NCBI RefSeq assembly: GCF_013122565.1
Contig: NZ_CP053258.1
Direction: 5' to 3' (one strand)
DNA length: 64,000 bases
Source: Escherichia coli
GTDB lineage: Bacteria; Pseudomonadota; Gammaproteobacteria; Enterobacterales; Enterobacteriaceae
Part shown: positions 1 to 61,797 of the stretch, in pieces
Layout: each line of letters opens with the position of its first letter
Position numbering within the stretch: the stretch's first letter is position 1
Translations under genes and position numbers: made by a program
Notes under the pieces: model-generated
The model's database searches: none
What the model saw: only the letters and a program-made list of their open reading frames with translations
What the model was told of the DNA's origin: nothing

Positions 1-2160
1 GTTCGCCACACGAGTATTCTCTGCGCCTGGTGCTGCAATCAGAACGTTAGTTTCCCCCAGCGATTGCCCCAGGGTAATGCCCTGTGAATGGGCAACTAAA
101 CTGCCTGAAAGAGCGTAGTTCAGTTGTTGTTGACTGCCGTTATCGCTGTAGTTGTAGCCCACTCGGGCATCCGCAAACGCCCCTTTGTAATCCATGCTGG
201 CGCTACCATTAGCCGTTTTCCCCTCGCTGTTATATCCCTGTTGCACGCTGTAGCTCAGGTTACCGTCATCGAGTAGTGTCTCCGTTAAACCCAGGTTTTG
301 TGTAGTGTGCCCTTCGTTATCGATACTGGTGTTAGAGGTCATCCAGGCGTAATTTTTTTTCCTGGTATAGCTATCATTACTTCTGGGGAGCAACAGATTG
401 AGCGGCAGGGAAAAATTAAGTGCAAACACCTGATCAGCATCAGGTTGACCACGGGACTTACTGTAATTCCAGGAAACCCCTAGCGAGAGATCTTTAATTT
501 GCGTGTTGTAGCCAAACTGTAATAGCCGATCCTGTTGATCGGTATGCCAGTAAGTTTGCTGGCTACCACTTAAATAAAACGAACCGTACTCGCCTAATTG
601 CTGGGAGATATTGACCTGCAGTTTGCCACGTTTGGTGTAAAACAAATTGTAATAACGCGACCACATCGGCGTATCTTCATCATCACCGTCATTAAATTCG
701 TAGCCATCCATATGTTTATACATGGTGTCGGAAAGGGTGTAGAAACCCGACGTCGAATAGCGATAGCCCATCAATTGAAAGTTAGTACCCAATTGGTTGA
801 GCGTTTTGGCATACAGAAAACGATATGACTGACCTTTATGTTCGCTTTGGTCTGCCAGCGTACTCTTCGCCTGGGTCACATCGAACGAAATTGCTCCGAA
901 ATCGCCGAGGTTAAATCCCAGACCAAACATGGCGGCACGGTAATATTCAGCATATTGTCCACCACCATACCAGGTCGTTCCCCACGGTCCGCCCCACTGC
1001 AACGTGGCCTGGGCAAATTTGCTCTCCTGCTGTTCATTAGTATTGGTTCTGTATTTCGCCAGTGTCACCGCGTATTTGATTCGCCCCTGACGCTGGAGTA
1101 ATGGCACGCTGGAAAAGGGTACGCTGTAGCTATTGACGCTGCCGTCCGCTTCTTTGATTTCAACTAACAAATCACCGCTCGACGACGTGGAATAGAGATC
1201 ACTAATTTCAAAAGCACCAGGCGATACATAAGTTTGGTAAATGGTGTAACCATTTTGCTTAATCGTTATCTGGGCATTGCTTTTGGCGATACCACGCACC
1301 ACAGGCGCAAACCCTTTCAGGCTGTCTGGCAGCATGTTGTCATCTGACGCCAGCTGCACACCACGAAAGCTGACACTATCGAAAAAATCGCCTGCAGTAT
1401 AATCATCACCTACGGTCAGTTCGCCTTTCAGAGGAATAACCGCCCGTTGCAAATAGCTGCTGAGATTCTTCCATTCTGCGGTTTGGCCACTACTACGACT
1501 CCATGTTGAATTGTTGCGCAATCTCCATGGGCCTAAATTAACGCCACTGTTTAAATTCAGAAAATAGCTGTCGCCAGAATCACTGTCTGCGCTGCTATGA
1601 ATAGTGTTAGCCCCGCTAAACGAATATCCCAGTAATAGCGCGTTGATCCCTTCATCCCAACGTTCAGGGGGGACATAACCACGGGCATTACTTTTGATGG
1701 CAATTTGCGGTACTGAAATTTCCAGACGGAGTTTATTCACATTAAAAGTTACGCTGGCATCCGGAATAATCTCCGCCAATGGCGCACACGCTTGTTTGTC
1801 CAGTTGTTTAAAAGCCGGAAACGCATCAGTATTCACACCCATTGCATCCAGGCTTTCAGTCGTCAAACAGGCGGCAATCCCCTTCTCTGGCGTTATCTCA
1901 ACAAAATTGACGTTGCGCGTATCTACAATTGTCTGATTCAGAACAATATCGACTCGATAAACCCCTGGCGTTATTTTTTGCCCTTTTTCGAAACGGGACA
2001 AATCGGCCACCATTGAGGGATCATCTTTGAAAAAAGCTGGATCGAACCAGGTTTCAGCTTGTGCATTGAACGCTGCCGACACAAACACCACCAGCCCACC
2101 AATAAACGATGGCACTCCTCCAGAGCATAACAGGCTGTGTTGTCGGTGAGTTCTATACAT
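1..2160 (-). CDS. elfC: Fimbrial outer-membrane usher ElfC (YcbS); partial, 720 N-terminal codons present, 3' end lies beyond window start
   Basis: Reverse-strand frame read open from ATG at 2160 (MYRTHRQHSLLSSGGVPSFIGG...) to position 1; sits directly downstream of chaperone and subunit genes; only short ORFs on the opposite strand. Confidence 0.85.
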   Translation of the reverse strand, partial: MYRTHRQHSLLCSGGVPSFIGGLVVFVSAAFNAQAETWFDPAFFKDDPSMVADLSRFEKGQKITPGVYRVDIVLNQTIVDTRNVNFVEITPEKGIAACLTTESLDAMGVNTDAFPAFKQLDKQACAPLAEIIPDASVTFNVNKLRLEISVPQIAIKSNARGYVPPERWDEGINALLLGYSFSGANTIHSSADSDSGDSYFLNLNSGVNLGPWRLRNNSTWSRSSGQTAEWKNLSSYLQRAVIPLKGELTVGDDYTAGDFFDSVSFRGVQLASDDNMLPDSLKGFAPVVRGIAKSNAQITIKQNGYTIYQTYVSPGAFEISDLYSTSSSGDLLVEIKEADGSVNSYSVPFSSVPLLQRQGRIKYAVTLAKYRTNTNEQQESKFAQATLQWGGPWGTTWYGGGQYAEYYRAAMFGLGFNLGDFGAISFDVTQAKSTLADQSEHKGQSYRFLYAKTLNQLGTNFQLMGYRYSTSGFYTLSDTMYKHMDGYEFNDGDDEDTPMWSRYYNLFYTKRGKLQVNISQQLGEYGSFYLSGSQQTYWHTDQQDRLLQFGYNTQIKDLSLGVSWNYSKSRGQPDADQVFALNFSLPLNLLLPRSNDSYTRKKNYAWMTSNTSIDNEGHTTQNLGLTETLLDDGNLSYSVQQGYNSEGKTANGSASMDYKGAFADARVGYNYSDNGSQQQLNYALSGSLVAHSQGITLGQSLGETNVLIAAPGAENTRVAN

Positions 2161-37533: not shown

Positions 37534-39207
37534 TTACTCGCCTTTAGCTGCTTTGAAAGCTTCAGCCATTGCGTTGTTGGAGAAGTTTGCATCTTCCTGT
37601 TTGTTAACAGTTGCGATTGCATCTTTCTCGTCAGCTTCGTCTTTCGCACGAACAGACAGGCTGATTGCGCGGTTTTTACGATCAACGCCGGTGAATTTAG
37701 CTTCAACTTCGTCGCCAACGCTCAGAACCAGGGTAGCGTCTTCAACGCGGTCACGGGATGCTTCAGAAGCACGCAGGTAACCTTCAACGCCGTCAGCCAG
37801 TTCTACGGTTGCGCCTTTAGCGTCAACTGCAGTTACTTTACCGGTTACGATAGCGCCTTTCTTGTTCAGAGCAACCCAGTTGTTGAACGGATCTTCTGCG
37901 AGCTGTTTAACGCCCAGGGAGATACGTTCACGTTCTGCGTCGACCTGCAGAACAACTGCAGCGATTTCGTCGCCTTTTTTGTATTCACGAACTGCTTCTT
38001 CGCCTGCAACGTTCCAGGAGATGTCAGACAGGTGAACCAGGCCGTCGATGCCGCCGTCCAGGCCGATGAAGATACCGAAGTCAGTGATAGACTTGATTTT
38101 ACCTTCAACACGGTCGCCCTTGTTGTGGGTTTCCGCGAACTGCTGCCACGGGTTAGCTTTGCACTGTTTCAGACCCAGGGAGATACGACGACGTTCTTCG
38201 TCGATATCCAGAACCATAACTTCCACTACATCGCCAACGTTAACAACTTTGGACGGGTGGATGTTTTTGTTGGTCCAATCCATTTCGGAAACGTGTACCA
38301 GGCCTTCAACGCCTTCTTCGATTTCAACGAAGCAGCCGTAGTCGGTCAGGTTGGTCACGCGACCAGTCAGTTTGGTACCTTCCGGATAACGTTTAGCGAT
38401 AGCTACCCACGGATCTTCGCCCAGCTGTTTCAGGCCCAGGGATACACGGGTACGTTCGCGGTCGAACTTCAGCACTTTAACAGTGATTTCGTCGCCCACG
38501 TTGACGATTTCGCTCGGATGCTTAACGCGTTTCCAGGCCATGTCAGTGATGTGCAGCAGGCCGTCAACGCCGCCCAGATCAACGAATGCACCGTAGTCAG
38601 TGAGGTTCTTAACGATACCTTTAACTTCCATGCCTTCCTGCAGGTTTTCCAGCAGCTGATCGCGCTCTGCGCTGTTTTCGGATTCGATAACGGCACGACG
38701 AGAAACAACAACGTTGTTGCGCTTCTGATCCAGCTTGATTACTTTGAATTCAAGCTCTTTGCCTTCCAGGTGCAGAGTGTCACGCACCGGACGAACGTCT
38801 ACCAGAGAACCTGGCAGGAACGCACGAATACCGTTCAGCTCAACAGTGAAGCCGCCCTTAACTTTGCCGTTGATAACACCGGTAACAGTTTCAGCATCTT
38901 CGTAAGCTTTTTCCAGCGTGATCCAGGCTTCGTGACGTTTAGCTTTCTCACGGGACAGCAGAGTTTCACCGAAGCCGTCTTCTACTGCGTCCAGAGCAAC
39001 GTCAACTTCGTCACCTACCTGGATTTCCAGCTCGCCCTGGGCGTTTTTGAACTGCTCAGCCGGGATGGCGGACTCAGATTTCAGACCAGCGTCAACCAGT
39101 ACTACGTCTTTGTCGATAGCAACAACAACGCCACGAACGATAGAACCCGGGCGGGTTTCGATTTCTTTTAAGGACTCTTCAAAGAGTTGAGCAAAAGATT
39201 CAGTCAT
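37534..39207 (-). CDS. rpsA: 30S ribosomal protein S1
   Basis: 557-aa [35 protein letters not shown]…; six S1 repeats. Confidence 0.98.
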
Positions 39208-46661: not shown

Positions 46662-46675
46662 ATGATCTATATCAA
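46662..46675 (+). promoter_or_regulatory. Putative FNR box upstream of focA-pflB
   Basis: aTGAT-ctat-ATCAA (13/14 match to TTGAT-N4-ATCAA) about 70 nt upstream of focA GTG, followed by -10-like TAGTAT (46698..46703). Confidence 0.4.
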
Positions 46676-57800: not shown

Positions 57801-60245
57801 TTACACCTTTTCAACCTGAACAAGGTTTGTATGTGACGGATTCCCCTTAGCGAGAGGAGACGGACGTTGAGTGGTCAGTACGTTAATACAACCACCCTTA
57901 TCGACACGTTTTGCATCCGGGTCATACCAGGCACCTTCACCCAGTGCGACCACACCCGGCATCATTCGTGGCGTCACTTTCGCCTCAATATGAACCTCAC
58001 CACGATCGTTAAAGATCCTGACTTTATCGCCGTTGTGGATACCGCGTTTTTGGGCATCAAGCGGGTTGATCCACATTTCCTGACGGCAAGCCGCTTTCAG
58101 CACATCAACGTTGCCGTAAGTTGAGTGAACGCGAGATTTATAGTGGAAACCTGTAAGCTGCAGCGGATACTGTTTGTTCAGCGGATCCTGATAACTTTCA
58201 AAGCCCGGCGTGTAGATCGGCAGTGGATCGATCACATCGCCTTCTGGCAATTCCCAGGTAGCGGCAATGTCAGCCAGCGCCTGCGAATAAATCTCAATTT
58301 TGCCCGATGGCGTAGTCAGTGGGTTTGCCTGCGGATCTTCACGGAAGGCTTTATAAGCAACGTGATGCCCTTGTGGGTCGCGCTTTTTAAAGATCCCCTG
58401 CTTGCGGAACTCTTCAAACGTTGGCAGTTCAGGAATCGCTTCCCGCGACTGGGCATACAGATGCCGCATCCACTCTTCCTGGGTACGGCCTTCAGTAAAC
58501 TGTTGCTCAACGCCAAGACGTTTTGCCAGTTCGCTGGTCATTTCATAGATGGTCTTACATTCAAAGCGCGGTTTAATCACCTGATCGTTGAAAATCACGT
58601 AAGACATATTCCCGCAGGATGCATCCAGTGCAAAGTCCATCTGTTCGGAAGCGGTGCAGTCAGGCAGCAGGATGTCAGCATATTTCGCCGATGAGGTCAT
58701 GTGGCAGTCGATAACCACAATCAGCTCGCACTTCTTATCATCCTGGAGGATTTCATGGGTACGGTTGATTTCAGAATGCTGGTTAATCAGGCAGTTACCG
58801 GCATAGTTCCAGATCATTTTGATCGGCACATCCAGCTTATCTTTCCCGCGCACACCATCACGCAGCGCCGTCATTTCCGGGCCACGTTCAATGGCATCGG
58901 TCCACATAAACATAGAAATGCTGGTCTGGATCGGGTTTTCCAAGGTCGGCATACGGACAAACGGTAAGCTGTATGAACCTTCACGCGCGCCGCTGTTCCC
59001 TCCATTAATACCAACGTTACCGGTCAGAATCGCCAGCATCGAGATAGCACGGGTTGCGATTTCACCGTTAGCGTGACGCTGCGGGCCCCATCCCTGGCTG
59101 ATAAACGCCGGTTTGGTACTGCCGATTTCACGAGCCAGTTTGATGATTTTGTCTGCCGGAACACCGGTGATTTGCGAGGCCCATTCCGGTGTTTTAGCCA
59201 CGCCATCTGGCCCTTCACCCAGAATATAAGCTTTATAGTGGCCATTTTTCGGCGCACTGGCTGGCAGGGTTTTCTCATCGTAGCCAACGCAATATTTATC
59301 GAGGAATGCCTGATCCACCAGGTTTTCGGTGATCATGACATACGCCAGACCGTTAACCAGTGCGGCATCTGTTCCCGGACGAATAGGGATCCACTCATCT
59401 TCGCGCCCGGCACCGGTGTCGGTATAGCGCGGATCGATGATGATCATGCGGGCATTAGATTTCTGGCGTGCCTGTTCAAGATAGTAAGTCACCCCACCGC
59501 CACTCATTCGCGTTTCGCCAGGGTTATTACCAAACAGCACTACCAGTTTACTGTTTTCGATATCCGACGGGCTGTTACCATCTGCCCAGCCGCCGTAGGT
59601 ATAGTTCAAACCTTCCGCAATTTGCGCGGAAGAGTAGTCACCGTAATGGTTCAGATAACCGCCGCAGCAGTTCATCAGGCGCGCAACCAGGGTATTTCCC
59701 GGGGGCCAGGAGCGGGTCATGGTGCCGCCCAGCGTACCGGTGCCATAGTTCAGATAGATGGATTCGTTGCCGTACTCTTTGATCAGGCGCTGCATATTGG
59801 TCGCGATGATGTCGTAGGCTTCTTCCCAGCTAATGCGCTCGAATTTGCCTTCACCGCGCGCCCCGACTCGTTTCATCGGATATTTCAGGCGGTCCGGATT
59901 ATAGACACGGCGACGCATGGAACGCCCACGCAAACAGGCGCGAACCTGGTGCAGGCCGTCGTAATTGTCATCGCCGGTATTGTCCGTTTCGACATATTTG
60001 ATTTCACCGTCCACGACGTGCATACGTAGCGGGCAGCGACTACCACAGTTAACTGTACAGGCGCTCCAGATAACCTTTTCGTCTGATTTTGTTGGAATGG
60101 CGCTATCGACAGCGTGCGCAATCCGACTAAAAGGTAATGTTAATGCGCTGCTGGCCATTGCCAGGCCGCCGATCGCTGTCGTTTTTACCAAACCACGGCG
60201 ACTCACCTCAGCAGCCAATACCGCATCAGGGATTTTCGTTTTCAT
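57801..60245 (-). CDS. dmsA: DMSO reductase catalytic molybdopterin subunit DmsA
   Basis: 814-aa ORF with long Tat signal peptide (…VSRRGLVKTTAIGGLAMASSALTLPFSRIAHA). Confidence 0.97.
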   Translation of the reverse strand: MKTKIPDAVLAAEVSRRGLVKTTAIGGLAMASSALTLPFSRIAHAVDSAIPTKSDEKVIWSACTVNCGSRCPLRMHVVDGEIKYVETDNTGDDNYDGLHQVRACLRGRSMRRRVYNPDRLKYPMKRVGARGEGKFERISWEEAYDIIATNMQRLIKEYGNESIYLNYGTGTLGGTMTRSWPPGNTLVARLMNCCGGYLNHYGDYSSAQIAEGLNYTYGGWADGNSPSDIENSKLVVLFGNNPGETRMSGGGVTYYLEQARQKSNARMIIIDPRYTDTGAGREDEWIPIRPGTDAALVNGLAYVMITENLVDQAFLDKYCVGYDEKTLPASAPKNGHYKAYILGEGPDGVAKTPEWASQITGVPADKIIKLAREIGSTKPAFISQGWGPQRHANGEIATRAISMLAILTGNVGINGGNSGAREGSYSLPFVRMPTLENPIQTSISMFMWTDAIERGPEMTALRDGVRGKDKLDVPIKMIWNYAGNCLINQHSEINRTHEILQDDKKCELIVVIDCHMTSSAKYADILLPDCTASEQMDFALDASCGNMSYVIFNDQVIKPRFECKTIYEMTSELAKRLGVEQQFTEGRTQEEWMRHLYAQSREAIPELPTFEEFRKQGIFKKRDPQGHHVAYKAFREDPQANPLTTPSGKIEIYSQALADIAATWELPEGDVIDPLPIYTPGFESYQDPLNKQYPLQLTGFHYKSRVHSTYGNVDVLKAACRQEMWINPLDAQKRGIHNGDKVRIFNDRGEVHIEAKVTPRMMPGVVALGEGAWYDPDAKRVDKGGCINVLTTQRPSPLAKGNPSHTNLVQVEKV

Positions 60246-60415
60246 AATGGCTCACTCAAGCTTGCTCACGATTGATTCCAGTAACAAACCGTATTGTGTA
60301 ATTATTTCTATAGCAGTTCGCTATATAGGCTTGTATACATCGAATGATTTGAAAATCAAAGAGATAGGTAGATTTTCACTCGAAAGTAGTATTACGTGTA
60401 AGTGAGGAGTAATTA

Positions 60416-60429
60416 TTGTTCGGTATCAA
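60416..60429 (-). promoter_or_regulatory. FNR box of the dmsABC promoter
   Basis: On dmsA strand reads TTGAT-accg-AACAA (TTGAT-N4-ATCAA family), about 175 nt upstream of dmsA ATG. Confidence 0.5.
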
Positions 60430-60430
60430 A

Positions 60431-60462
60431 GGGAGACAAAAAAAGCGCCCGCAGGCGCTTTT
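60431..60462 (-). terminator. Rho-independent terminator after serS
   Basis: AAAGCGCC-cgca-GGCGCTTT hairpin; on serS strand followed by UUUUUUGUCUCC. Confidence 0.65.
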
Positions 60463-60483
60463 TAGATTCAGAAAAATTGGGTA

Positions 60484-61797
<1,314 letters not shown>

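Follow-up and report, generated by a model that had tools for sequence, protein, structure and literature searches.

The serS–dmsA spacer of Escherichia coli and the known control region of the dmsABC operon: a comparative view of its promoter, terminator and leader

The spacer between serS and dmsA in the E. coli chromosome window analysed here (the window being the whole stretch of DNA, 64,000 nucleotides) very probably corresponds to the known regulatory region of dmsABC, the DMSO reductase operon. It covers exactly positions 60246..60483 (238 bp). On one side lies serS, encoding serine--tRNA ligase (minus strand, 61776..60484; stop codon TAA at 60486..60484), which was assigned from the open reading frame list, the RefSeq annotation of MG1655 and the translation of its C-terminus. 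On the other side lies dmsA (minus strand, 60245..57801; ATG at 60245..60243), whose predicted product begins with a twin-arginine signal (MKTKIPDAVLAAEVSRRGLVK...). The sequence from 60100 to 60600 is 99.8% identical to that of E. coli K-12 MG1655. Of 5426 complete E. coli genomes, 5425 carry it, with the two genes annotated as serS and dmsA. The dmsA promoter has long been characterised and is among the model class II FNR promoters, and the observation reported here is therefore correct but ordinary and already known. The locus is that of E. coli dmsA P1, which is class II FNR-activated, NarL-repressed and ModE-responsive, and nothing of substance distinguishes the two. What our analysis adds is only comparative detail, namely the 35-bp spacing from the FNR box to the -10 hexamer, the 7-11 bp spacing from the terminator to the box, and a second ModE-type box in Citrobacter.

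The FNR box TTGATaccgAACAA lies on the minus strand at 60429..60416, and its assignment draws on sequence, conservation and published ChIP data. Read on that strand, TTGATACCGAACAA agrees with TTGAT-N4-ATCAA at nine of ten positions. The centre of the box, at 60422.5, is 177.5 nt upstream of the A of the dmsA ATG, which bears out the original prediction of an FNR-type site about 175 nt before the start codon. The -10 hexamer AATACT of dmsA P1 occupies 60393..60388 (minus strand) and was recognised by its fixed spacing to the box and by its (nearly) invariant alignment columns. Given that the hexamer ends 35 bp past the box centre and that the site, which overlaps the -35 region, is published at -41.5, the hexamer falls at -12..-7 and transcription is inferred to start at 60381 on the minus strand. 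A start near 60380 and a leader of more than 100 nt had been anticipated; the geometry gives 60381 and a 136-nt leader from this start to the ATG (60246..60381, minus strand). We take the dmsA ATG to be at 940,182 in U00096.2, which places the box centre at 940,004.5 and the start at 940,046 in that version. This coordinate agrees with the serS start at 939,428 (U00096.3) minus the 777-bp offset between the two versions, which is its sole cross-check. At class II FNR promoters, [4Fe-4S]-FNR dimers bind the box under anoxia and recruit sigma-70 RNA polymerase. At dmsA, [4Fe-4S]-FNR dimers on the box would likewise bring sigma-70 RNA polymerase to AATACT at 60393..60388 under anoxia, and transcription would then proceed from 60381 through the 136-nt leader.

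Published experiments place FNR and RNA polymerase at this promoter. Table 1 of Myers 2013 (PMC3688515) gives dmsABC an FNR ChIP-seq peak at 940,035, a site at -41.5 and direct activation, and the FNR-type site thus belongs, as predicted, to the dmsABC promoter, being a published class II site. The supplements of the same study (Myers 2013, PMC3688515) list a second FNR peak position at dmsA (939,992) and a sigma-70 peak at 940,050, with an occupancy of 30.8 under aerobic compared with 447.5 under anaerobic conditions. The RNA ratios of the fnr- strain to wild type are 0.018 for dmsA, 0.021 for dmsB and 0.056 for dmsC (Myers 2013, PMC3688515), so that dmsA RNA is approximately 55-fold lower without fnr. 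FNR dependence, on which the original prediction was to be judged, is accordingly on record, both in the dmsA ratio and in the anaerobic sigma-70 ChIP peak. Bearson 2002, as quoted secondhand, also describes the dmsA FNR site as class II at -41.5, and mutational work on the site has been published. In the SMRT-Cappable-seq supplements, dmsA was absent in searches that included U00096.2 coordinate prefixes. Among other E. coli promoters, narG is likewise a class II FNR promoter with its site at -41.5, responds to NarL and involves IHF; NarL, however, activates narG from far upstream, whereas it represses dmsA by covering the promoter (Myers 2013, PMC3688515).

We compared the locus across species. 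A scan of one genome per species yielded 80 dmsA loci, in approximately 48 of which serS is the immediate upstream gene. The genera sharing this synteny are Escherichia, Salmonella, Citrobacter, Klebsiella, Enterobacter, Leclercia, Lelliottia, Pluralibacter, Pseudocitrobacter, Phytobacter, Cedecea, Buttiauxella, Hafnia, Edwardsiella and others. Thirty-seven serS–dmsA spacers, one per enterobacterial species, were aligned (alignment A1). Mean column identity is 64%, with sharp conserved islands at the terminator, the FNR half-sites, the -10 hexamer, a 24-bp palindrome and a block around the ribosome-binding site. The half-sites TTGA and CAA do not vary in the 37 species, the spacer between them is free, and (A/G)ATACT ends exactly 35 bp past the box centre in 34 of the species. 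The spacing from the T-run of the terminator to the box ranges from 7 to 11 bp, and that from the box centre to the ATG from 135 to 178 nt, a variation in leader length of approximately 40 nt. Furthermore, dmsA also has an FNR box ahead of it in groups that lack the serS neighbour, namely Yersinia, Proteus, Providencia, Morganella and Vibrionaceae (Vibrio), which argues that FNR control is older than the adjacency to serS.

Upstream of the box, the serS intrinsic terminator occupies 60438..60463 on the minus strand (-82..-57). It consists of a stem AAAAAGCGCC (60463..60454), the loop TGCG, a stem GGCGCTTTTT (60449..60440) and a run of seven T (60444..60438); relative to the dmsA start, the stem lies at -82..-59 and the T-run at -63..-57. 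The hairpin AAAAAGCGCC-TGCG-GGCGCTTTTT (60463..60440) begins 20 nt past the stop codon TAA. Its free energy is -16.3 kcal/mol (z -3.9), and none of 200 shuffles folds as well. Five G-C pairs extended by A-U pairs, a loop of 4 and the following T7 identify it as an intrinsic terminator, and its symmetry (A-run/T-run) could in principle allow termination on both strands. A simple terminator scan reported none at the serS 3' end, although direct folding shows the hairpin; our guess is that the scan carries the stem on into the T-run. The Term-seq tables of Adams 2021 (U00096.3 numbering), searched by gene name and by sorted rows, show no 3' end for either direction in the interval 939,546-944,900 and are uninformative on serS termination. 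Across the 37 species only the loop of the terminator varies, its stem, A-run and T-run being invariant; with 18 invariant columns, no part of the spacer is more conserved. No compensatory change was found in comparisons of 24-37 species.

The original prediction had set the FNR box only 2 nt from the hairpin. This distance was too short, the gap being 8 nt (GTCTCCCT, 60437..60430) from the last T of the T-run, or 10 nt when measured from the last base paired in the longest stem. The broader idea that the terminator is tightly packed against the anaerobic promoter holds, with the T-run at -63..-57. A sigma-70-like combination on the minus strand, TTGTCT-16-AATAAT (60412..60439), overlaps the end of the T-run and the FNR box; it was treated as chance because its -35 part is unconserved in other genera and one such match per shuffle is expected. 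The terminator probably insulates the oxygen-regulated dmsA promoter from constitutive serS transcription. Insulation would be the most economical reading of an arrangement in which serS, a constitutive housekeeping gene, comes to its end right ahead of a promoter that has to stay off in air. We know of no upstream-gene terminator abutting the FNR box of narG.

The leader contains a further conserved element, a 24-bp palindrome of the ModE operator type, CGATGTATA-CAAGCC-TATATAGCG, at 60319..60342. It is conserved in 33 or more species, with the alignment consensus CGTTATATATAAAACTATATAGCG. The dmsA box CGATGTATACAAGCCTATATAGCG and the modA operator CGTTATATTGTCGCCTACATAACG are the same type of 24-bp palindrome, and the modA ModE operator taken from MG1655, CGTTATATT-GTCGCC-TACATAACG, shares with the dmsA box the layout CGnTATATn-N6-TAyATAnCG. 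A matrix made from the dmsA boxes scored the modA site at 13-14 bits, compared with 500 shuffles whose maxima had a 95th percentile of 4.0 and reached at most 13.1. At modA, ModE acts as a repressor on an operator that overlaps the promoter. The dmsA box, in contrast, would be centred at +51.5 within the leader, a position relative to P1 that we read from the sequence. The title of McNicholas 1998 states that dmsABC expression requires ModE, and a putative ModE operator downstream of the start is an unusual place for a positive regulator.

Citrobacter has an intact second ModE-type box, 31 bp further towards dmsA than the first and approximately 60-67 nt before the dmsA ATG (six loci), which scores 25-29 bits; in S. 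arizonae the second box is weak (13 bits). The corresponding stretch of E. coli, 60290..60312 (alignment columns 190-225), appears to be a degenerate remnant of this tandem box, and no match above background was obtained there. The second box looks like a tandem duplication in the Escherichia/Salmonella/Citrobacter lineage that lengthened the leader, which would account for the approximately 30-40 nt longer leaders of this group. C. werkmanii and C. youngae ATCC 29220 carry a 30-bp deletion (A1 columns 147-176) by which the left half of the first ModE-type box is gone and the second box is kept.

Two heptamers on the minus strand fit the NarL-type pattern TACYYMT, namely TACTCCT at 60405..60411 (-30..-24) and TACCTAT at 60364..60370 (+12..+18). 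A published sentence, cited here from a quotation, states that at dmsA NarL shields a large stretch in which both the FNR and the RNA polymerase sites lie. Nitrate repression, as published, acts via NarL-phosphate coating the FNR/polymerase region, and the presence of the two consensus heptamers is consistent with it. A search of the spacer with the strict IHF consensus gave no match. As for the leader RNA, its predicted fold does not stand out from those of shuffled sequences (z -1.65; 14 of 200 shuffles), and an RNA switch was rejected on this ground. A candidate upstream open reading frame of 10 codons (MYTSLYSELL; 60308..60340, minus strand), which starts inside the ModE-type box, was also set aside, as it is unconserved and its ATG is absent in most other genera. 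Next to dmsA lies a conserved block, GTGAGCAA ... GAGTGAG (60251..60269, minus strand), which was delimited from the alignment and whose GAGTGAG, 5 nt from the ATG, resembles a Shine-Dalgarno sequence. Over the 37 species this block, GTGAGCAA ... (A)AGTGAG, is (nearly) invariant, which is more than a Shine-Dalgarno sequence alone would need. Taken together, the dmsA leader appears to owe its length to DNA operators, namely the ModE-type palindrome and the decayed second copy, rather than to an RNA switch, a conclusion that is partly shown and partly inferred.

The terminator is also a site of phage integration. A 20-bp core, AAAGCGCCTGCGGGCGCTTT (60442..60461), serves as the attachment core of P2-family prophages in other strains, and the window carries the unoccupied site. 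In NZ_CP018970.1, the core AAAGCGCCTGCGGGCGCTTT is found at both ends of a P2-like prophage of approximately 38.5 kb (38310..38329 of locus L083 and 1799..1820 of locus L084), which sits between serS and the dmsA promoter. The int gene of the prophage, encoding a tyrosine integrase, ends 84 bp from attR, and the arrangement qualifies as an attachment site. At attR, the T7 run and the FNR box are kept behind the phage int gene, and attL leaves serS only three T after the stem. The junction of int, attR and FNR box was detected in 335 of 5426 complete E. coli genomes (approximately 6%), and the prophage is also present in E. albertii. The region encoding the C-terminal part of the integrase is 100% identical to three phage records, vB_EcoM-569R5, vB_EcoM-705R2 and one named after P88. 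Elsewhere in the prophage (L083, 32875..33072), Rfam matches to C4 antisense RNA (83 bits) and isrK (65 bits) were observed. Among the papers searched, none dealt with a prophage site at the serS terminator.

Other explanations can be offered for parts of this region. Motif counts by themselves would permit the view that the FNR-like motif arose by chance and regulates nothing, given that sites with at most one mismatch are no commoner in the window than expected (5 compared with 3.2; 21 of 100 shuffles equal this). The counts being non-significant, the argument for the box rests on its position, its cross-genus conservation and published experiments, and these leave the chance reading with next to no probability. 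Its half-sites are invariant across genera, its distance to the -10 hexamer is fixed at 35 bp, the published mutational work is known through quotation, and the FNR and sigma-70 ChIP peaks together with the approximately 55-fold FNR dependence of dmsA RNA (Myers 2013, PMC3688515) have already refuted a chance origin. Of the further one-mismatch FNR-type sites in the window, one, ATGATCTATATCAA at 46662..46675, lies by coordinate conversion approximately 20 bp from a published FNR ChIP peak assigned to focA (953,746); the others are at 2281, 4297 and 54378. A different reading concerns the opposite strand: from 60336 to 60470 (plus strand, antisense to dmsA), the Rfam family RF02084 (STnc130) gives 138.8 bits compared with a gathering score of 55. 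These 135 bp might be an antisense small RNA gene, with a plus-strand promoter inside the ModE-type box and an end at the bidirectional serS terminator, acting on the dmsA promoter or leader. As modelled, the RNA would begin within the ModE-type box, cross the dmsA start, the -10 hexamer and the FNR box in antisense direction, and finish with the serS hairpin read backwards. In favour of such a gene, the family has matches at the equivalent position in seven other genera, including matches on the same strand in Salmonella, Citrobacter, Klebsiella, Enterobacter, Leclercia and Phytobacter; the terminator is symmetric, its conserved A-run being a T-run on the plus strand; and the plus-strand fold has a z of -2.1. 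Nevertheless, Table S3 of Sittka 2008 places STnc130 of Salmonella in class V (previously predicted only), flanked by serS and dmsA in the orientation -> <- ->. Neither of the two cDNA libraries gave a read, a dedicated Northern probe yielded 'nd = no detectable transcript', and Barquist 2013 still terms the candidate 'putative'. An RNAalifold consensus built from 24 species recovered nothing but the terminator hairpin (9 bp); compensatory pairs numbered 0 and the covariation term was 0.08, so that RF02084 shows no conserved structure beyond the terminator that it shares with serS. The promoter scan found no sigma-70-like promoter on the plus strand. Moreover, conservation is limited to the FNR half-sites with their free 4-bp spacer, the -10 hexamer and the palindrome, a signature of protein-binding DNA, and the conserved positions of the family coincide with the FNR, -10 and ModE-type DNA sites. 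In view of the missing transcript (Sittka 2008) and the lack of covariation, a real small RNA was rejected as the main explanation and is, in our judgement, highly improbable; RF02084 most likely captures conserved promoter and regulatory DNA, above its family threshold, and not an RNA gene.

The closeness of the terminator to the FNR box raises a separate question, whether it serves a function beyond insulation. The T7 run at -63..-57 could double as an A/T-rich contact for the alpha C-terminal domain or as DNA covered by NarL, and such a dual role would explain why the hairpin sequence does not change. The invariance of stem, A-run and T-run around a free loop, the want of compensatory substitutions and the constant placement of the T-run end 7-11 bp before the box are all consistent with it. 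FNR activating region 1 makes contact with the alpha C-terminal domain when this domain sits upstream of the activator, and the title of Lamberg and Kiley 2000 states that this region is required at dmsA. On the other hand, a spacing of 7-11 bp lacks helical phasing, and a stem with five G-C pairs tolerates no single change, so that its invariance may reflect terminator function alone. The FNR box in the same orientation before dmsA of Yersinia, Proteus and Vibrio, all without serS upstream, also speaks against a dual role, and we regard it as possible but unlikely. Somewhat more doubtful still is a broader proposal, in which the serS hairpin and T7 form a multi-purpose DNA element that would be at once a terminator for serS and for antisense transcription, an A/T-rich part of the promoter (for the alpha C-terminal domain or NarL) and the integration core of P2-like phages.

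As a discovery, this re-analysis of the dmsA promoter carries little weight, and its practical uses are three. It flags the Rfam family STnc130 as probably conserved promoter DNA; it accounts for the length of the dmsA leader by DNA operators rather than by an RNA switch; and it records the serS terminator, beside an oxygen-regulated promoter, as a phage integration site that is occupied in approximately 6% of complete E. coli genomes. If the hairpin were indeed a multi-purpose element, its packing against the promoter would have been selected, and lysogeny would measurably alter serS termination or the control of dmsA.
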